Assembly: GCA_022340825.1 (NCBI GenBank) | Contig: JAJDNE010000009.1 | Span: 10,849 to 74,848 of the forward strand | Reading direction: 5' to 3' | DNA: 64,000 bases | DNA from: Acidiferrobacterales bacterium | GTDB taxonomy: Bacteria; Pseudomonadota; Gammaproteobacteria; Acidiferrobacterales; JAJDNE01 | Shown here: positions 1,847 through 12,147 of the stretch, piece by piece | Layout: every line of letters begins with the position of its first letter | Position numbering within the stretch: position 1 is the stretch's first letter | Translations under genes and position numbers: made by a program | The notes under the pieces: model-generated | Databases searched by the model: none | What the model was told of the DNA's origin: nothing | Seen by the model: the letters and a program-made list of their open reading frames with translations, nothing else

Positions 1847-3061
1847 TCAGGGGCGTTTCAGGCGGGCAGCAATGCGCAGGCGCAGGGCATTTAGCTTGAT
1901 GAAACCACCTGCATCGGCCTGATCATAGGCGCCAGCATCCTCTTCGAATGTGGCGATATTGGCATCGAAAAGACTATCACTGTCCGACTTTCTGCCAGCG
2001 ACGCAGACATTTCCCTTATACAGCTTGACCTTGACCGTACCATTCACATTCTCCTGCGAGGCATCGATCATTTGCTGCATCATCTTGCGCTCGGGACTCC
2101 ACCAGTAGCCGTTATAGATCAGGCTGGCGTAACGCGGCATCAGCTCATCTTTTAAATGAGCAACTTCCCGGTCCAACGTCAGTGATTCCATCGCCCGATG
2201 CGCCTTCAACATAATGGTGCCAGCAGGCGTTTCGTAACAACCACGGGATTTCATGCCGACGTAGCGGTTCTCGACAATATCGTCGCGACCAATACCATTG
2301 GCGGACCCGAGTTTGTTCAGTGTCTCCATGACTACGGCCGGCGTCAGGTCGTCACCGTCAATGGCAACGATATCGCCCTTGCGGTAGGTGAGATCGACGT
2401 AGGTCGGTTCATCGGGTGCCTGCTCCGGGGAAACTGACCAGCGCCACATGCCCTCTTCCGGCTCTGCCCACGGATCCTCAAGGATGCCACCTTCATAGGA
2501 GATATGAAGCAGGTTGGCATCCATGGAGTACGGTGACTTTTCACCCGGCTTCTTGTCTACCGCAATGCCATGCCTGTCGGCATAAGCCAGTAATTTTTCA
2601 CGCGAGGTCAGGTCCCACTCACGCCAGGGTGCGATCACCTTGATATCAGGCGCCAGGGCATAGGCACCCAGCTCGAATCGTACCTGGTCGTTACCTTTGC
2701 CAGTTGCTCCGTGCGAGATCGCATCGCCGCCAGTATCCGCGGCTATCTCAACCAGACGTTTCGCGATCAATGGCCGCGCAATGGAGGTGCCCAGCAGGTA
2801 CTCGCCTTCGTAAATCGTGTTGGCGCGGAACATGGGGAACACATAGTCCCGCGCGAACTCCTCGCGCAGGTCCTCGATATAGATTTCCTTGATACCCATG
2901 GCCTCAGCCTTGGCCCGTGCCGGTTCCACTTCTTCACCCTGACCAATGTCGGCGGTAAAGGTCACCACTTCACACTGGTAGGTCTCCTGAAGCCACTTGA
3001 GAATGACCGAGGTGTCCAGGCCGCCTGAATAGGCAAGCACTACTTTTTTAACTTGCGACAT
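1847..3061 (-). CDS. argG: Argininosuccinate synthase
   Basis: N-terminus [24 protein letters not shown] (SGGLDTS ATP-PPase motif) and full-length ArgG-like sequence. ATG at 3061 preferred over the TTG at 3073 used by the ORF track. Confidence 0.93.
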
Positions 3062-3219
3062 GATACTGCGCAAACTCCATGATCAGGTTGAACGAATACG
3101 GTATACCGATTCAGGAAAAAACTGTAGGGAATCCCACTGCCACCGCAACAGCACCGCAAAGTATACACAAGCCATCAAGGTCGGGGCGAGACTGGCGGAC
3201 TATTACCCGCCGAGTCCTG

Positions 3220-6200
3220 TTACTTCTTGCGCGCCTCGCTGCGACGCAAGCGAGATAGCAACCGACGTGCCATGTCACCAAAGAGCTCGGTCTGGGTCGG
3301 GTGCGGATGAATTGCCATCGCTGCCTGATCCAGGGTCATCTCACCGGAGACCATCATGACTGCTTCACCGATTAGTGTATCGGCATGCTCGGTCAGGAAG
3401 TGAACACCGATAATCCGGTGGCTGGATTTGTCTGCCACGATCTTGATCATGCCGTCGGTTTCACCGGTAATCATGGCCTTGGCATCGATGCTCATCGGGG
3501 CCTTCACTTCGACAGGATCCAGGCCCTTGGCCTTGGCCTGGTCAACGGACAGACCGACAAATGCGGCCTGTGGCCGGGTAAAGATCACACCGCAGTCTTT
3601 GCTCTCATCATAAAACGCGGCTTCGCCAGTGAGGGTCATCGCCGCAACCCGGCCTTGTTGGCCGGCGGTATGCGCAAGCATCAAGCCACCGATGACATCA
3701 CCGACGGCAAAGATGTGTGGCACGCTGCTACGACAGGTAGCATCCACCTTGATCGCGCCGTTTTCGACTGCAACGCCAGCCTTGTCGAGATCCAGCGGCT
3801 CCAATACCGGTCGCTTGCCGGTGGCCATGACGACATAGTCACATTTGAAATTGCGGTTCTTGCCTTCGCCATCTTCAAACGCCAACGTCATCTCGCCGGG
3901 CTTGCCTGAAATCTTTTTCGCCTTGGCGTTGGTCACCAGCGTCAGGTTCTTTTCCTGTTCGAGCAGGCCGGCCAGGTTCTTCGCGATTTCGGGCTCGACC
4001 TCTTTCAGCGGTCGATCGGCTGCCTCCAGCACGGTGACCTTTGCACCGAAGTCAGCAAAGATCTGGGCCATCTCGAGACCAATGGCACCGGCACCAATGA
4101 TGCCGAGGCGCGCCGGCGCATCTTTCAGACCCCAGACGGTATCCGAGGTGAGCACACCCTTGTTGTCCGCTCCCTCAACCGGCGGCACAAACGGTGGTGC
4201 CCCGGTCGCAACAACGGCAGCACCGAAGCTAATGGTTTTGGTCTTCTTGCCGTCACCCGGTGTGGCGCGGACGTGGGGGTCCTTGGTGTTCCCGCCAGTA
4301 TCCACCGTGATGCTGTGATCGGAGGCAAACCGGGCAAATCCCTGAATCACGTCAATCTTGACACCCTTATCGGTCTTGAGCGCCATTTCACCGCGCGCCT
4401 CCAGTACACCACGACGGGTTTCTTCCAGCTTCTTCCAGTTGAGTTCTGGCTTGGCGGTGTTTTTTACACCGAGACGTGCGTCATGAGCACGATCGCGCAT
4501 GCGGTCGGCACCGGCACGCCACGCCTTAGACGGGATACAGCCACGCCATAGACATTCGCCGCCCGGGAATGGCGCATCATTGATCATCGCTACCTTGAGT
4601 CCATGCTGCACCAGGTCGCGCGCGCAGTCTTCGCCACCGGGACCGCCGCCAATGACAACGACATCATAATCCCAGTCACCGGCAGGAATCGCGGACTCGC
4701 CCCTGGCAGCAGGTGCCGGCACTGACGCCGCGCCACTTATCCAGCCGGGGTTTTCTACCAGCTCTTTGAAGGTATTAAGGAACTTGGCGGCATCGGCACC
4801 ATTCACGATGCGATGATCCGCGGTAATCGTGACCGGCATTCCTTGTGGGCCGGCGGTTGCAATCGCAAAAATCGCGGACGTGCCCGGAGACGGTATCGCG
4901 TCAAACAGTGCCACACCCATCATACCCATATTGGAAATCGTAAACGTTGGGTTGGAATATTCCTCCGGTTTCAGGCGACGCTTGCGCGCGCGGTCAACCA
5001 GATCGGTCCAGTTTGCTGTCAGCTCGGCTAAAGAGCGGTGAGCGGCGTTACGCAATACCGGTACCACCAGGCCCATGCCTTCGGTCTCCACGGCCAAACC
5101 GATATCAATCTGCTCTCGCTCAACGATCCGATCTTCGTGCTGATACACGGCATTAATGGAAGGATGTTTCATGATTGCCAGTGCGGCCGCCTTGGCAATG
5201 GCCACGGTCAACGAGGCACCGGCCTGCTTAGATGCCACCTTCAATGCATCGGGCTGGATATTCGCGGTTACCCGGAACAGCGGCATGGAGAGTGAGTACT
5301 CCATGTTGTGGGCAACGGCCTTTTCCATCGCGGTCATCGCGCGGCCTTCGCCCGGCACCTGGAATACACGCTTGATGGAGGTCTTCTGGGTTTCCTTGTT
5401 GAGCACGTCGGCGGCGATGATGACACCACGCGGCCCGGTGCCGCTGATACTGCTCAGGTCAATACCGTGTGCACCGGCGAGCTGGCGTGCATACGGTGTC
5501 GCCTGGCCGCTGGCTGGGCGTGGCGCTGGCGTAGCGCCATGCGGCATGGCAGGAATCTTGGTTTTGGCCTTGGGCGTGCCCGCTGGCTCGAATTTCGGTT
5601 TTTCCTCTTTCGGCCCGGATGCAATCACAGAGCGTTCGCTTTTAAGCACCTTGGATTTGTCGTCGACCAGGTAAGCGATGGCCTCACCGACAGGGACAAC
5701 ACTGTCGACTGCCGCCAACGGGCCCGAGAGATACCCCTCGCGAAACACCTCGACATCCATCACGGCCTTGTCGGTCTCCACGGTCGCGACCACGGTGCCG
5801 CGGGCAATGTGATCACCGATTTCCTTTTCCCAAGTCACCATTGTGCCCTCGGTCATGGTATCGGAGAGTTGTGGCATCTTGACCGGATGGGCTTTGGCAG
5901 GTGTTTCGTCTGCTGGCTGGGCAGGTTCTGCACCAGCTTTTTCGTCAGCTCCCGCACTGGCCGCCACCGGGGCGCTATCCGCCGCGACAACCTCTTTCTC
6001 GCTGGCTACCAGCATGGCGATGGCATCACCAACCGGGATAACGCTGTCGACTGCCGCCAACGGGCCGGAAAGATAACCCTCGCGAAACACCTCGACATCC
6101 ATAATTGCCTTGTCGGTCTCCACGGTCGCGACCACGGTACCGCGTTCAATGAAATCACCGATATTCTTTTCCCAGGAAACGATCGTGCCCTCGGACATGG

Positions 6201-6243
6201 TGTCCGAGAGTTGGGGCATCTTGATTATGTATGGATCACTCAT
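3220..6243 (-). CDS. Fused dihydrolipoamide acyltransferase (E2) - dihydrolipoamide dehydrogenase (E3), 1007 aa
   Basis: Single uninterrupted ORF. It holds two lipoyl domains (VETDKA[IV]MDVE twice), a subunit-binding domain (ATPYARQLAGAHGIDLSSISGTGPRG) and an acyltransferase catalytic domain (TITADHRIVNGADAAKFL). After a short Ala/Pro linker comes an FAD/NAD disulfide reductase (DYDVVVIGGGPGG, GGECLWRGCIPSK, HPHPTQTE). The junction lies near nt 4675. Confidence 0.85.
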   Translation of the reverse strand: MSDPYIIKMPQLSDTMSEGTIVSWEKNIGDFIERGTVVATVETDKAIMDVEVFREGYLSGPLAAVDSVIPVGDAIAMLVASEKEVVAADSAPVAASAGADEKAGAEPAQPADETPAKAHPVKMPQLSDTMTEGTMVTWEKEIGDHIARGTVVATVETDKAVMDVEVFREGYLSGPLAAVDSVVPVGEAIAYLVDDKSKVLKSERSVIASGPKEEKPKFEPAGTPKAKTKIPAMPHGATPAPRPASGQATPYARQLAGAHGIDLSSISGTGPRGVIIAADVLNKETQKTSIKRVFQVPGEGRAMTAMEKAVAHNMEYSLSMPLFRVTANIQPDALKVASKQAGASLTVAIAKAAALAIMKHPSINAVYQHEDRIVEREQIDIGLAVETEGMGLVVPVLRNAAHRSLAELTANWTDLVDRARKRRLKPEEYSNPTFTISNMGMMGVALFDAIPSPGTSAIFAIATAGPQGMPVTITADHRIVNGADAAKFLNTFKELVENPGWISGAASVPAPAARGESAIPAGDWDYDVVVIGGGPGGEDCARDLVQHGLKVAMINDAPFPGGECLWRGCIPSKAWRAGADRMRDRAHDARLGVKNTAKPELNWKKLEETRRGVLEARGEMALKTDKGVKIDVIQGFARFASDHSITVDTGGNTKDPHVRATPGDGKKTKTISFGAAVVATGAPPFVPPVEGADNKGVLTSDTVWGLKDAPARLGIIGAGAIGLEMAQIFADFGAKVTVLEAADRPLKEVEPEIAKNLAGLLEQEKNLTLVTNAKAKKISGKPGEMTLAFEDGEGKNRNFKCDYVVMATGKRPVLEPLDLDKAGVAVENGAIKVDATCRSSVPHIFAVGDVIGGLMLAHTAGQQGRVAAMTLTGEAAFYDESKDCGVIFTRPQAAFVGLSVDQAKAKGLDPVEVKAPMSIDAKAMITGETDGMIKIVADKSSHRIIGVHFLTEHADTLIGEAVMMVSGEMTLDQAAMAIHPHPTQTELFGDMARRLLSRLRRSEARKK

Positions 6244-6322
6244 AGTGGCACAGCTATTGTGCAGGGCACGGGCCCTGCATACTTTAAATTAACAGGAATA
6301 GACCGGACGCTCCCTCTGGGAA

Positions 6323-7303
6323 CTAGATCTTGCCCAACGCTTTCAACGCGCCCTGGTAAACGTCCTCGACATCGGGGATCGCTTCCTTTTCCAGACGGGC
6401 GTTATACGGCACCGGCACATCGGCAGCGTGCACACGAATCGGCTGGGCATCCAGAGCGAAGAAACAGTCTTCGTTGATGGCAGCCATGATCTCGGCACCC
6501 ACGCCAACCGGCGCTTCATCTTCCTCGGCGATGACCACACGATGCGTCTTTTCTACTGAACGACGAATGGTTTCACGGTCGAGCGGCTTGAGTGAGCGTA
6601 AGTCCAGGACTTCGGCGCTAATGCCATCTTTGGCCAGCTTGTCGGCGGCACCCAGACACAGGTGCACATTGTAGTTGTAACCGATGAGGGTGATATCAGT
6701 ACCGCGACGAACAATCTCGGCACCTTCCAGCGGTCGAAAGAATTCCTCTTCCGGCATTTCCTCTTTCATGTTGTACATGCGCTCATGTTCGATAATCACC
6801 ACCGGGTCATTACAACGAACCGCGGACTTGAGCATACCGTAGGCATCCACCGGGCCACGCGGAGTAACCACACGCAGGCCGGCTGTACTCATAAACATAC
6901 GTGCCAGACGCGCCGAGTGCTGTGCCGCCAACTGGTGCGCGGTACCGCCTGGCGTGCGGATCACAAGCGGACAGGCAATTCGACCACCTGACATGTAACG
7001 AATCTTGGCGGCGGCATTAACAATAGTATCCAGTGCGAGCAATGCGAAGTTGATCGACATGATCTCGATGATAGGACGCATACCGACCATGGAGGCGCCA
7101 ATACCGATACCGGTATAAGAGTTTTCCGAGATCGGGGTATCAATGATGCGCTCCGGACCATACTTGTCGAACAGGCCTGAAGTGGCCTTGTAGGTTCCAC
7201 CAGCGACGCCTATGTCCTCGCCCATGGCGATTACCATCTTGTCGTTGGCCATTTCTTCGTCGTGGGCGCGCCGAATGGCTTCCCAATATGCAGTCTCGGC
7301 CAC
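6323..7303 (-). CDS. pdhB: Pyruvate/2-oxoacid dehydrogenase E1 component beta subunit
   Basis: 326 aa, MAETAYWEAIRRAHDEEM..., transketolase-like pyrimidine-binding and C-terminal domains typical of heterotetrameric E1 beta. Lies 2 nt after the E1 alpha stop. Confidence 0.88.
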   Translation of the reverse strand: MAETAYWEAIRRAHDEEMANDKMVIAMGEDIGVAGGTYKATSGLFDKYGPERIIDTPISENSYTGIGIGASMVGMRPIIEIMSINFALLALDTIVNAAAKIRYMSGGRIACPLVIRTPGGTAHQLAAQHSARLARMFMSTAGLRVVTPRGPVDAYGMLKSAVRCNDPVVIIEHERMYNMKEEMPEEEFFRPLEGAEIVRRGTDITLIGYNYNVHLCLGAADKLAKDGISAEVLDLRSLKPLDRETIRRSVEKTHRVVIAEEDEAPVGVGAEIMAAINEDCFFALDAQPIRVHAADVPVPYNARLEKEAIPDVEDVYQGALKALGKI

Positions 7304-7305
7304 GC

Positions 7306-8313
7306 TTATTCTCCTTCGTTTACCAACGGCCCGATCCAGCGCGGATCCGGGTTGTCATCAAGCACGTAACGGGTAAGGTCCTCGATCTTCGGCTCAGGGC
7401 TTTCCTCGGCAAACTTGATAATGTCATTCTCGACTTCATCGTCGATTTCCTTTTCCATCGCCTTGATATCGGCATCACTGATGACGCCGGCTTTCTTCAG
7501 GCGACGACTGTAAACCTTGATCGGATCGCGCTTCTCCCACTCGGCCTCTTCTTCCTTGGTGCGGTAGCTCTTGGCGTCGGACATGGAGTGGCCGCGGAAG
7601 CGGTAGGTCATGAATTCGATGAAGTATGGTTTCGATTCGCCGCGCACGTAATCAATCGCCTTACTGGCGGCTTCCATGACAACATCGATATCCATGCCAT
7701 CGTGCTGGCTGGCTTCCATGTTGTAACCACAAACACGCTTGTACTGGTCGCGCACGGCAGTTGAACGATCAATGTGGGTACCGATGGCATATTCGTTATT
7801 CTCGCAAACAAACAGCACCGGCAGATTCCACACTGAAGCCATGTTCATGGTCTCGTGGAACGTGCCCTGGTTATTAGCGCCGTCGCCAAGAAAACAGATG
7901 GCGATCTGGCCTTCGCCGCGGTGCTTGGCGCCGAGCGCAAGACCCGCCGCTAACGGGAACGGTTGACCCACCAGGGCATAGCCACCCATAAAATTCACGG
8001 TCGGATCAAAAATATGCATGGAACCGCCACGGCCCTTGCTGGAGCCGGTCTCCTTACCATATAACTCTGCCATCACTTCTCTGGCAGGCGCGCCAGATTT
8101 GAGGGCATGCACGTGATCACGGTAACCGGTAATCACATAGTCGTGACCAGGCTTGGCTCTCTCCAGCACACCGGTAGCCACCGCCTCCTGCCCCGAATAC
8201 AGGTGCAGGAATCCGCCGACCTTCCGCTCCATATAGGCCTCGAAGCAGCGATCTTCGAAGCGGCGATAAAAAATCATTTCACGCAGTAGGCGTTTCTGGT
8301 CCTCTGGCTTCAT
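7306..8313 (-). CDS. pdhA: Pyruvate/2-oxoacid dehydrogenase E1 component alpha subunit (TPP-binding)
   Basis: 335 aa, ..GFLHLYSGQEAV..GYRDH..GKGGSMH-like (SKGRGGSMH), GDGANNQG TPP motif. Confidence 0.88.
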   Translation of the reverse strand: MKPEDQKRLLREMIFYRRFEDRCFEAYMERKVGGFLHLYSGQEAVATGVLERAKPGHDYVITGYRDHVHALKSGAPAREVMAELYGKETGSSKGRGGSMHIFDPTVNFMGGYALVGQPFPLAAGLALGAKHRGEGQIAICFLGDGANNQGTFHETMNMASVWNLPVLFVCENNEYAIGTHIDRSTAVRDQYKRVCGYNMEASQHDGMDIDVVMEAASKAIDYVRGESKPYFIEFMTYRFRGHSMSDAKSYRTKEEEAEWEKRDPIKVYSRRLKKAGVISDADIKAMEKEIDDEVENDIIKFAEESPEPKIEDLTRYVLDDNPDPRWIGPLVNEGE

Positions 8314-8760
8314 GGAACTCCCTTAGAATTGGTGGGATAGCGAGTCGTCACCACGCTTATGTATTCGTTGTTGACGGACAGGCGCTACTTAGCCTGCCGT
8401 TGCGAGGGCGGTATGATCGTTTTTTTGCCTATACAGGTCAAGAAGACAAAATTTTTCCCGATCGATGTCCAACGGGCAAAATGCCATCACCAACTGATGT
8501 TGCACGTTACCGACAAATAATGCGAGTTGTCAGCATGTTGTCATATTTTAATGCTAAATAGGCGCAACTGTTTGATTGGCTGGAAGGACTGACGATCGCG
8601 GTGCCGCAACCGATAACCCTGCCGTTCTGGCAGAGACACGGGTGCAGAAAATGCCTGATTTCCTGTAGCATGAACCGCTCCCGACAAAGTCGGTATTTAA
8701 TGATACAAGCCTGACTGGAAAATGGCAGGCGAAAAATCACTTTCGGAGGAAGCATTAACC

Positions 8761-9177
8761 ATGGGTCTTGATATTGCACAGCGCTGGCTTGAAGACTTGC
8801 AGCAATCGGCCAACGACAAAGACTACCAGGCACACATGGACCTCATTTCACGACAAGTTAGCGTTTTCGGCTTTCCCGGTTTCGAGGTCATCGGGTACGA
8901 CGACTGGGCGCGTCAATGCAAGCATGAATTCGAAAACAATATTCTGAAACAGGTGTCCTACGGACCCATGAAAATCGTCGCGCACGCGCCCGGTCGCGTG
9001 ATGTTCAAAACCATTGAAACGGTGGAGGCCACTGACGGCACCAGCAATACCAATGGTGTCGAAATCATTATCCAGAAAGAAGACGACGGGAAGTGGCGTG
9101 TACTTCAGGAGCGCCTGCTGGCGGAAGACGAGCTCAGCCTCGATGGGCTGTCACTCGACGCCGAATCTGTTGCTTGA
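8761..9177 (+). CDS. Hypothetical protein (possibly NTF2/SnoaL-like fold)
   Basis: ORF 8722..9177. ATG at 8761 is preceded by GGAGGA (8745-8750) at good spacing. No diagnostic motif recognised. Confidence 0.5.
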   Translation: MGLDIAQRWLEDLQQSANDKDYQAHMDLISRQVSVFGFPGFEVIGYDDWARQCKHEFENNILKQVSYGPMKIVAHAPGRVMFKTIETVEATDGTSNTNGVEIIIQKEDDGKWRVLQERLLAEDELSLDGLSLDAESVA

Positions 9178-9414: not shown

Positions 9415-9909
9415 ATGGATCTCATCCTTGACCGTTGGTTACACGTTATGGCCGGTATTACCTGGATCGGCTTACTCTACTACTTCAATTTCATTCAAGT
9501 GCCTTCTGTCGGCAAAGCCAAGGCTGACGGCATCGCCGCCGACATCGTACCGAAACTGATCGCTCCCAAGGCGCTGCTGTGGTTCCGTTATGCTGCGCTC
9601 GTCACCTGGCTGAGCGGTGCCTATTATCTGTTCAGTGCTGCTCACCTGAGCTTCGCGGACGCATTCATGCTCAAGGGCGCCAGCGCCATCATCGGTATCG
9701 GCGCATGGCTGGGCACCATTATGCTCTTCAATGTCTGGGTTCTGATCTGGCCGAACCAGAAGAAAGTACTTGGTATTACCCAGGCTTCCGACGAGCAGAA
9801 GGCAAGCGCTGCGCGTATCGCCTTCCTCGCATCCCGCACCAACACCATGCTGTCGATCCCGATGGCGTTCTTCATGGTAAGCGGTCCGCACGGTCTCCCC
9901 ATGATGTAA
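9415..9909 (+). CDS. Integral membrane protein (PuuD/CopD-like N-terminal motif HxxxGxxWIGxxxYFNF); function unknown
   Basis: 164 aa with about 4 hydrophobic helices; MDLILDRWLHVMAGITWIGLLYYFNFIQ... Confidence 0.6.
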   Translation: MDLILDRWLHVMAGITWIGLLYYFNFIQVPSVGKAKADGIAADIVPKLIAPKALLWFRYAALVTWLSGAYYLFSAAHLSFADAFMLKGASAIIGIGAWLGTIMLFNVWVLIWPNQKKVLGITQASDEQKASAARIAFLASRTNTMLSIPMAFFMVSGPHGLPMM

Positions 9910-10060: not shown

Positions 10061-11248
10061 ATGGCACAAGACTCTTATCTGATGCACACCTATGGCCGGC
10101 TACCCGTGGCAATGGCCCGCGGCGAAGGCGCATGGCTATGGGACACCGACGGCAACAAGTACCTCGATGCCATGACCGGTATTGCGGTGTGTTCGCTCGG
10201 CCATGCTCACCCGACAGTGAGCCAGGCCATTTGCGACCAGGCCGGCACCCTGATGCACACCTCCAACTGGTACCAGATCCCCAGGCAGGAAGCGCTGGCC
10301 GAACGGCTGTGCAAACTTGCCGGAATGGACGCCGTGTTTTTCAGCAACTCCGGCGCCGAGGCCAACGAGGCTGCCATCAAGTTGGCAAGGTTATTCGGCC
10401 ACAACAAGGGCATCGATTTGCCGTCAATCGTGGTCACGGAGCACAGCTTCCATGGCCGCACCATGGCAACCCTGACCGCCACCGGTAGCCGCAAGGTTCA
10501 GGCAGGATTCGAGCCATTGGTGCAAGGGTTCAATCGAGTGCCGTACAACGACCTCGAGGCAGTCCGGCAGGTTGCCGCCAACAACAGCAATGTTGTGGCA
10601 GTGATGGTGGAACCGATACTCGGTGAAGGCGGCGTGGTCATCCCCGACGACGGTTACCTCAAAGGTCTACGCGAGATATGTGATGAAAATGGCTGGTTAC
10701 TGATGCTCGATGAGATTCAAACCGGCATGTGCCGTACCGGCAAGTGGTTTGCCAGCCAGCACGAGGGTGTGGTGCCTGATGTGATGACGTTGGCCAAAGC
10801 CCTCGGCAACGGCATGCCCATCGGCGCCTGCCTGGCACGTGGTACTGCCGCGGAGACGCTAGGTGCCGGTAAACACGGTTCGACCTTTGGTGGTAATCCG
10901 CTGGCCTGCGCCGCTGCCTCGGCCGTTGTCGATACCATGGAATCGGGTTCGCTGGACAAGCGTGCAGCCCAGTTGGGCAAACGAATTCTGGAGGGTCTCA
11001 CATCCTCACTCAACACAACGGAGGGCGTTCGCGAGATTCGTGGCAAAGGCCTGATGATTGCTGTTGAGCTGGACCGTGACTGTGGCGACCTGATGGCACT
11101 GGCCTTGAAAAAGAATCTGCTGATCAATGTGACCGCCGGTAACGTGGTTCGTTTGCTGCCGCCGATGATCCTGAGTGATGATGAAGCCGGCCAGATTGCT
11201 ACGGGTGTGGCGGACCTTATCATCGACTTCATGGCGACCGCACAATGA
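10061..11248 (+). CDS. argD: Acetylornithine aminotransferase
   Basis: 395 aa, [36 protein letters not shown]..., class-III PLP aminotransferase ([14 protein letters not shown]; TLAKALGNG lysine). Confidence 0.9.
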
Positions 11249-12147
11249 AACGCCATTTCCTGTCGTTGATGGACCTGAGCACAGACGAATTCCGCCAGCT
11301 GCTGGCGCGCGCTGCCGAACTCAAGACTGTCCATAAGTCGGGAAAGGTGATCAAGCCTTTGGATGGTAAAACCCTGGCCATGGTGTTCGACAAGTCCAGC
11401 ACCCGCACACGCGTTTCGTTCGAAGCTGGCATGGCGCAACTGGGTGGTAGCTCGATGTTCCTGTCGCCGCGGGACCTGCAGATCGGTCGTGGTGAGCCAA
11501 TAGAAGATACCGCGCGCGTAATGTCGCGCATGGTAGATGTGATCGTCATGCGCACGGGCGAACACAGTAACGTTGAGACCTTCGCCGCCAACTCCGAGGT
11601 ACCGGTCATCAACGCCTTAACCGATATGTATCACCCGTGCCAGCTGTTGGCTGATATGCAAACCTATATCGAGCATCGAGGCGATATTCGCGGCAAGACG
11701 GTGGCCTGGATTGGCGACGGCAACAATGTCTGTCATTCGTGGATGAACGCTGCGCGCCTGCTCGATTTCAAGCTGGTTATCGCCGTACCGGAAGGTTATG
11801 AGCCAGACGCGCAATTACTGGCGATTTGTAAAGACCGCGTCTCGCTTACCACTGATCCCGTCGCCGCGGCAACGGGTGCCGACGTCGTCGTCACTGACAC
11901 CTGGGCAAGTATGGGCCAGGAAGATGAAAAGGCGGCCCGGATGAAGGCGTTTGCCCCGTATATCGTAACCCGAGCCACCATGGCCGCGGCCAAGCCGGAG
12001 GCCATCTTCATGCATTGCCTGCCTGCCTACCGCGGCTCCGAAGTGGAAACCGAGGTGATCGATGGACCGCAGAGCGTGGTCTGGGATGAAGCCGAAAATC
12101 GCCTGCACGCGCAGAAGGCGCTACTCGAATTCCTGCTCACCCGGTAA
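11245..12147 (+). CDS. argF: Ornithine carbamoyltransferase
   Basis: 300 aa with [17 protein letters not shown] and HCLPA motifs. Overlaps the argD stop by 4 nt. Confidence 0.92.

Follow-up and report, generated by a model that had tools for sequence, protein, structure and literature searches.

A probable orthologue of a widespread E2–E3 fusion family encoded behind pyruvate dehydrogenase E1 genes in an Acidiferrobacterales bacterium

Background

The stretch of DNA analyzed here, referred to as the window, comprises 64,000 nucleotides of contig JAJDNE010000009.1 (positions 10,849 to 74,848 of the forward strand) from the Acidiferrobacterales bacterium assembly GCA_022340825.1. On the minus strand, window positions 3220–6243 hold pdhC-lpd, a gene for a 1007-residue protein in which the acyltransferase subunit (E2) of a 2-oxoacid dehydrogenase complex, probably pyruvate dehydrogenase (PDH), is fused to a dihydrolipoamide dehydrogenase-type subunit (E3). 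It lies directly behind genes for the alpha and beta chains of the PDH E1 component. The fusion is real, typical of its lineage and already known, and a claim of novelty for it fails. We are confident that pdhC-lpd belongs, as an ordinary orthologue, to a fused family that is widespread in sulfur- and iron-oxidizing Gammaproteobacteria, Acidithiobacillus included.

Functional E3 must dimerize, and the E2 core must trimerize. In PDH complexes of the Geobacillus (Bacillus) stearothermophilus type, E1 has α2β2 composition, and E1 and E3 compete for the subunit-binding domain of E2. An E2–E3 fusion is therefore a natural experiment on the building of 2-oxoacid dehydrogenase complexes, with a trimer-forming core tied one to one to a dimer-forming E3. 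Powles and Rawlings, writing in Microbiology in 1997, reportedly described an ‘unusual E2-E3 subunit fusion’ in the PDH complex of Thiobacillus ferrooxidans. Our own literature search found no paper on this E2–E3 fusion in the collection covered; the matches to ‘E2-E3 fusion’ concerned ubiquitin enzymes.

Results

The list of open reading frames (ORFs) gives for positions 3220–6243 a single frame of 1007 codons plus stop, opening with ATG and free of internal stops, and the assignment of pdhC-lpd draws on this frame, on Pfam and NCBIfam profiles, on full-length relatives and on contigs that cross the junction. GC content along the gene runs from 0.54 to 0.61 with no break. Directly upstream on the same strand lie pdhB (6323–7303; PDH E1 beta, 326 residues), which matches Transket_pyr and Transketolase_C and scores 380.6 bits on NF006667 (cut-off 321), and pdhA (7306–8313; PDH E1 alpha, 335 residues), which scores 288 bits on PF00676 and 416.5 on TIGR03182 (PDH_E1_alph_y; cut-off 393.85). 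Both thus exceed curated NCBIfam cut-offs for PDH E1. A reading made earlier from the letters and ORFs of the stretch (the sequence-only reading) had described a complete E2 joined in one 1007-residue frame to a complete E3, with E1 alpha and E1 beta immediately upstream; the Pfam order and motifs bear out the first part, and the ORFs and NCBIfam E1 scores the second.

All Pfam matches in the fused protein lie above cut-off, namely Biotin_lipoyl (two stretches), E3_binding, 2-oxoacid_dh, Pyr_redox_2 and Pyr_redox_dim. Lipoyl domain 1 occupies approximately residues 5–80 (6004–6231), where β strands are modelled over residues 5–79, and carries the lipoyl-lysine Lys45 in the motif ETDKA; lipoyl domain 2 occupies approximately residues 119–194 (5662–5889; best Biotin_lipoyl stretch 120–192) and carries Lys159. 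The surrounding T43-D44-K45-A46 and T157-D158-K159-A160 are both invariant. A peripheral subunit-binding domain (PSBD) follows at approximately residues 246–283 (5395–5508; PF02817, 50 bits over 248–281), and then the acyltransferase catalytic domain at approximately residues 301–503 (4735–5343), which matches PF00198 over residues 302–499 with 162 bits against a domain cut-off of 23 bits and contains Ser437, His477 and Asn481. The N-terminal half aligns with solved E2p and E2o cores across TISN[LM]G and DHR. The hallmarks of an E2 are hence present, that is, a lipoyl-lysine in DKA, a PSBD, and a CAT-like core with the catalytic His and the Ser of TISNxG.

The E3 module covers residues 526–1007 (3220–4668), with Pyr_redox_2 at 526–864 (222 bits) and Pyr_redox_dim at 885–991. 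It contains the FAD-binding GxGxxG at 532–537, the NAD-binding GxGxxG at 717–722 with Glu740, the redox pair Cys564/Cys569, spanned by GGECLWRGCIPSK, and the pair His981/Glu986 within HPHPTQTE at 979–986. In an alignment of 21 diverse members of the family, Lys45, Lys159, Ser437, Asp476-His477-Arg478, Asn481, Cys564, Cys569, His981 and Glu986 are invariant, as are G532–G534, G717/G719/G722 and E740 of the E3 module, while P535, G536 and G537 are nearly so. The PSBD reaches a mean majority fraction of 0.85 in the same alignment, on a par with the catalytic domains.

Three features set the E2 half apart. Firstly, Asn replaces the Asp of DHRxxDG (DHRIVNG at residues 476–482), whereas all solved E2s printed in the alignments have Asp at this position. 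Asn probably also occupies this position in the E2p of Azotobacter vinelandii. In a motif survey of 122 sequences (the query and 121 relatives), 121 match DH[RQ]xxxG, every one with Asn, and the remaining one is off-pattern. Secondly, the core lacks the 13-residue β-hairpin located just before DHR (around residues 462–470). This deletion is common to two unfused E2s, P0146 and P0172 (41–43% identical), whereas more distant E2–E3 fusions and ordinary E2s keep the hairpin; among 401 genomes drawn from the phylum, only the window's own matched P0146 at E ≤ 1e-70. Thirdly, a conserved ENPxW[LI] closes the core at its C-terminal end, and P499 and W501 within it are invariant among the 21 members.

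The two halves meet at approximately residues 500–525 (4669–4746), as delimited by DNA, alignment and model, in an Ala/Pro-rich segment of roughly 16–25 residues; the linker of about 25 residues that the sequence-only reading had placed near nucleotide 4675 is the same element. In its variable core (504–519), the mean majority fraction drops to 0.41 with 27 extra gap columns, compared to 0.82–0.87 in the domains, and the distance from DHR to the GxGxxG of E3 varies between 47 and 75 residues (median 59) across the 122 sequences. A full-length AlphaFold2 model has a mean predicted local distance difference test score (pLDDT) of 68.9 and a predicted template modelling score of 0.44, and thus shows disordered linkers but is too weak for domain packing. 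In this model pLDDT is below 50 at residues 505–514, as it is in the three classical E2 linkers, and residues 498–525 are coil. Alignment and model together indicate that the linker is a flexible tether of variable length.

A lost stop codon or a frameshift could in principle have merged adjacent E2 and E3 genes in the assembly, and the source genome is indeed a metagenome assembly of 127 contigs that is 86% complete. We therefore compared window positions 3100–6400 with Logan contigs from four public runs. A DNA contig from another study (X5, record 18) spans 4491–5731 with no gaps; in a further study, an RNA-library contig (X14, record 12), which is no proof of transcription, spans 4653–4887 with no differences; and a third (X9, record 29) covers 4168–4741, nearly the whole junction, again with no differences. 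None of the contigs over 3100–6400 contains inserted or deleted letters. The best DNA holder (X1), which is possibly the source sample, has no listed contig over 4543–5208, and this proves nothing either way. Comparison with relatives gives stronger evidence still: of the 80 best-matching loci in named genomes, 74 continue across the junction without leaving the frame. DHRxxxG, CLWRGC and HPHPTQTE share a single open frame in 67, and seven more pass the junction before reaching a contig end or a frameshift (in L058 at residue 885, inside E3 and past the junction). In the other six, a contig end or a stretch of N cuts the sequence off before the junction or shortly after it, and in none of the 80 does a stop codon fall at the junction. 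The stop or frameshift that would have reduced the fusion to two ordinary genes was thus not seen in the independent contigs or in the 80 loci, and an artefact appears so improbable that the fusion can be taken to stand.

Three relatives that at first appear to be split or unfused were rejected as such. In G032 the halves lie in different frames, which would favor an artefact or a genuine split, but the frame switches within a run of six G in the linker (L012:3060-3260, G032:C2) and the E3 part has no usable start codon. The break is likely a homopolymer error or a pseudogene in an otherwise near-complete relative. G020, seemingly an E2 alone, reaches a contig end before the junction, and P0123, seemingly an unfused protein, is partial and lies at a contig end.

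The fused architecture is widespread. When 5.8 billion clustered proteins were searched by word index, 1624 of 7999 scored candidates were matches, including at least 120 clusters (at 90% identity) of full-length fusions; the best 120 are 985–1043 residues long and 68–93% identical to the query at 97–100% coverage, and bear the Pfam families of both halves. Two clusters in the ESM Atlas, with 82 and 83 members, also have both halves. The databases name these relatives ‘FAD-dependent oxidoreductase’, ‘dihydrolipoamide dehydrogenase’ or ‘pyruvate dehydrogenase’, and such names are vague because neither half reaches the NCBIfam equivalog cut-offs. Current family models thus under-call both halves, leaving automated labels at ‘FAD-dependent oxidoreductase’ or ‘E2’.

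The class was sampled evenly with 300 scored genomes, of which 295 have a completeness of 90% or more and a contamination of 5% or less. A match at E ≤ 1e-150 is present in 60 of the 300, which represent 54 of 265 genera. All but two of these 60 matches are free of stops, which again argues against an artefact. Within the same order, at least 25 of 41 genomes, the window's own (G000) included, have the junction in one open frame, and some carriers encode one-lipoyl versions of about 905 residues. Besides the frame-shifted G032 and the truncated G020, G008 has a TAA inside the match, and 13 of the 41 lack the family, their best matches (E 1e-46 to 1e-58) being to paralogues. Cultured carriers include Thiohalophilus thiocyanatoxydans DSM 16326 (71% identity over residues 1–1005), Acidithiobacillus ferriphilus DSM 100412 (57% over residues 1–992) and, with a complete genome, A. 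sulfuriphilus CJ-2 (58% over residues 1–991); further carriers are labelled Acidiferrobacter, Sulfuriflexus, Thiogranum, Thiohalobacter and Granulosicoccaceae.

Two expectations of the sequence-only reading have to be revised in the light of this distribution. It knew of no fusion of a whole E2 to an E3, and this does not hold, given at least 120 clusters, a fifth of the genomes drawn from the class and cultured Acidithiobacillus and Thiohalophilus. It had also reasoned that its case would fall if the fusion were already widespread and characterized: widespread it is, and characterized, reportedly, at the genetic level only.

The sequence-only reading had further pointed to the disulfide motif CLWRGC, in place of the usual CLNVGC, and to the Asn of DHRxxNG. 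Both departures are real but neither is peculiar to this gene: CLWRGC (GGECLWRGCIPSK) and HPHPTQTE occur in all 122 surveyed sequences and in all 67 complete loci, and the Asn in 121 of 122. DHRxxNG, CLWRGC and HPHPTQTE are thus best regarded as family hallmarks, not defects.

The E3 half belongs to a subfamily that also exists unfused. Stand-alone E3s with CLWRGC and HPHPTQTE were found on metagenome contigs (P0124 on L095; L132:4001-5458), divergently oriented from genes for E1 alpha, E1 beta and a canonical E2 of 449 residues (L132:362-6844, L095:394-5464). In this E2 the hairpin is complete and the C-terminus free, and an ATP-citrate-lyase-like gene lies nearby, downstream. Of 38 CLWRGC-bearing frames in 44 related metagenome loci, 33 are fused, three are clearly stand-alone and two are ambiguous. 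An IPxGDWDYD segment precedes the FAD motif in the fused protein, and it appears to be a trait of the E3 subfamily, as GDWD occurs at that place in the stand-alone members too.

A maximum-likelihood tree was built from 38 E3 parts; its backbone is weak, and its midpoint root serves only for display. In it, the fused modules of the Gammaproteobacteria group in a single clade (98/96), which is sister to the stand-alone CLWRGC E3s; the two are jointly supported at 100/100 on a stem of length 1.11. Because these stand-alone E3s carry CLWRGC, the motif is not a consequence of the fusion, and the odd disulfide loop predates it or is independent of it.

E2–E3 fusions also occur at a much greater distance. 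One-lipoyl proteins of 838–916 residues and 28–35% identity (P0130, P0131, P0132, P0134, P0138, P0140, P0141, P0144 and P0229), some of them from genomes labelled Bathyarchaeota, Promethearchaeota and Helarchaeota, have lipoyl domain, PSBD, core and E3 in one frame according to Pfam in nine of nine full-length cases, and the core is full-length with the hairpin in all five that were aligned. We know of no description of these proteins. They fall at no fewer than five places in the tree beside unfused E3s, for example P0130 with P0148 (100/99) and P0138 with P0156 (98/91), a pattern that fits several independent fusion events.

The window's genome, 2.19 Mb in size, contains a single PF00198 E2, and no aceE-type E1 or 2-oxoglutarate E1 above cut-off was found in it. 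No 2-oxoacid dehydrogenase complex other than that of the PDH operon was thus found in this genome. Besides the fused module, the genome encodes three flavoprotein disulfide reductases, namely two glutathione reductases and one soluble transhydrogenase, and the genes gcvT, gcvH and two gcvP genes lie on contig 16 (G000:C16:30917-34929). No stand-alone protein above the TIGR01350 or NF004943 cut-off was found in this genome, in G022 (one contig, 99% complete) or in G015 (99% complete). By comparison, G013 has a canonical lpd (509 bits), and A. sulfuriphilus a protein with 633 bits on NF004943 (cut-off 432). A rule by which the fused E3 is always the sole lipoamide dehydrogenase consequently fails, as it is true for only three of the five genomes examined. 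In those three it is the only candidate found for the L-protein of glycine cleavage, which we treat as a lead, not a rule. The search of relatives for split versions and additional lpd genes, suggested by the sequence-only reading, thus gave a mixed answer: none of the apparent splits among close relatives proved genuine, and an additional lpd exists in two of the five genomes.

Several points weigh against reading pdhC-lpd as the E2–E3 subunit of a PDH complex. The E2 half scores 308 bits on the PDH E2 model TIGR01349, below the equivalog cut-off of 445, and its 162 bits on PF00198 compare with 222–274 in ten distant fusions with a complete or almost complete core. The E3 module is below the cut-off of every NCBIfam dihydrolipoyl dehydrogenase model (370.8 against 408.8 on TIGR01350 lipoamide_DH; 290.6 against 432 on NF004943), and on TIGR01350 the glutathione reductases of the same genome reach 323.8 and 361.4 bits. 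Relatives are called ‘E2 of acetoin dehydrogenase complex / dihydrolipoamide dehydrogenase’ by one source. Absences in the window's genome are provisional because it is 86% complete.

Because the glutathione reductases score nearly as high, the TIGR01350 score alone does not discriminate, and what identifies the E3 is instead its motifs, its solved relatives and its context. More generally, each half is assigned by Pfam, motifs and solved relatives, and the C-terminal half looks E3-like by every motif. All of the solved structures that match this half best are dihydrolipoamide dehydrogenases (1ebd_A with 235.8 bits, and P64K, 5u25/1bhy, with 219–225), compared to 185.9 bits for mercuric reductase and about 155 for glutathione reductase.

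These matches speak against the idea that the C-terminal module is a flavoprotein disulfide reductase for another substrate, with CLWRGC marking an altered specificity, as the sub-threshold NCBIfam scores, the invariant Trp-Arg pair of the disulfide loop and the long branch in the E3 tree might suggest. The module also keeps HxHPTxxE, where the genome's glutathione reductases have HPTSAEE; the stand-alone CLWRGC E3s sit beside E1 alpha, E1 beta and a canonical E2; and the E2 to which the module is joined requires an E3, of which no other was found in this genome. We consider a different substrate very improbable.

Slightly less remote, yet still improbable, is that the operon encodes an acetoin dehydrogenase, or a dehydrogenase for some other 2-oxoacid or diketone, in which case the fused protein would be an AcoC-AcoL. 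The acetoin name, given by that one source to two relatives, and the low TIGR01349 score are in line with such an assignment, and the hairpin-deleted core is shared with P0146 and P0172, unfused E2s without an assigned specificity. Both E1 chains, however, are above the cut-offs of PDH-specific models, and other sources call the relatives ‘pyruvate dehydrogenase’. No other PDH E1 was found in the genome, which is of an autotroph type and needs a route to acetyl-CoA. In addition, the A. ferrooxidans genome paper gives pyruvate dehydrogenase to three genes, AFE3068-70 (PMC2621215). An E2–E3 subunit of PDH thus remains our preferred assignment.

The operon is framed by two weak signals. A sigma-70-like promoter match (TTGACC-17-GATCAT; 8413–8441, minus strand) lies about 100 nucleotides 5′ of the E1 alpha start, a consensus match only (9/12) in a region where eight such sites were found and 4.2 were expected from shuffles. 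About 85 nucleotides past the stop codon of pdhC-lpd, a weak terminator-like hairpin with a 5-pair stem and a T run (3124–3137, minus strand) is likewise a consensus match only. Genes of arginine biosynthesis flank the operon at 1847–3073 and 10061–12147: argG, a PF00202 class-III aminotransferase gene read as argD-like, and a PF00185/PF02729 gene of the ornithine-carbamoyltransferase type. Between the PDH operon and a Urate_ox_N-type membrane-domain gene (9415–9909) there is an ORF of 151 residues (8722–9177, plus strand), for which Pfam gives no family at E ≤ 1e-5.

Discussion

From established knowledge of PDH complexes with an α2β2 E1, we infer enzyme activity, E1 docking and quaternary structure as follows. 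The gene pdhC-lpd would be the third cistron of a pdhA-pdhB-pdhC/lpd operon for pyruvate dehydrogenase. An α2β2-type E1 would decarboxylate pyruvate and reductively acetylate Lys45 and Lys159, and the E2 core, through His477 and Ser437, would hand the acetyl group to coenzyme A. The lipoyl arm would then be reoxidized by an E3 module, either its own or that of a neighboring polypeptide, by way of FAD, Cys564/Cys569 and His981/Glu986, with reduction of NAD+. The E3 module would hang off the C-terminus of the core by the flexible Ala/Pro linker, and the retained PSBD would dock E1 without competition from E3. The PSBD has a function, to judge from its conservation, which equals that of the catalytic domains; docking of E1 is the most likely one and gives the most economical reading. 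E1 and E3 would thereby cease to compete for the docking domain, a rivalry long discussed for α2β2-E1 complexes.

The sequence-only reading held that a covalent E2:E3 stoichiometry of 1:1 would force an unusual core architecture, and we find this plausible. No solved chain spans both halves: the 60 best PDB matches shown are all confined to one half or the other. The C-terminus of E2 adjoins the two-fold contact between trimers, just after the ENPxW[LI] ‘knob’, and because the flexible tether starts beside this contact, the E3 modules of adjacent trimers could pair. For another E2, a preprint suggests that a C-terminal tag may explain a trimeric crystal form. Tentatively, then, the E3s might pair across the edges of the core (12 dimers per 24-mer or 30 per 60-mer) or replace the two-fold contact, at a 1:1 ratio and with the PSBDs free for E1, and the tethered E3 might double as the L-protein of glycine cleavage wherever there is no other Lpd; we regard this arrangement as possible and somewhat doubtful. 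If true, either architecture would have a fixed E2:E3 ratio of 1:1, unlike any solved complex. In the window's genome, the tethered E3 would also have to serve glycine cleavage, because gcvT, gcvH and gcvP are present and no separate Lpd was found.

Comparison with known systems

The closest known counterpart is the fused PdhC of Acidithiobacillus, which has the same domain order; in T. ferrooxidans it reportedly lies behind pdhA and pdhB, as here. The proteins of A. ferriphilus and A. sulfuriphilus carry DHRVVNG, CLWRGC and HPHPTQTE. The systems differ in that the window comes from an uncultured gammaproteobacterium of sediment type, which identity values place with genomes labelled Acidiferrobacterales, and in that A. 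sulfuriphilus has an extra stand-alone protein of the dihydrolipoyl dehydrogenase type, whereas none was found in the window's genome. Arginine-biosynthesis genes are near PDH both here and in A. ferrooxidans, where, according to the genome paper, argC (AFE3073) is three genes off the PDH genes AFE3068-70 (PMC2621215).

The PDH of G. stearothermophilus resembles the present system in its heterotetramer-type E1 genes and in an E2 built from lipoyl domain, PSBD and CAT-like core, and no solved structure matches the C-terminal half better than its E3 (1ebd_A). There, however, E3 is a separate dimer that is bound non-covalently, whereas in the window's protein it is covalently attached at 1:1, and the motifs DHRxxDG and CLNVGC stand against DHRxxNG, CLWRGC and a core that is shorter by the 13-residue hairpin. 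P64K of Neisseria meningitidis (1bhy, 1ojt, 5u25; 219–225 bits) also combines E3 with another domain of the PDH complex on one chain, but this is only a lipoyl domain, located at the N-terminus of E3, and the acyltransferase core is separate. The distant E2–E3 fusions share the four-part order in one frame and differ by having one lipoyl domain, 28–35% identity and, in the five aligned, an intact hairpin. Finally, the stand-alone CLWRGC E3s share GGECLWRGCIPSK, HPHPTQTE and GDWD with the fused module, but are encoded by a separate, rare gene that accompanies a canonical E2.

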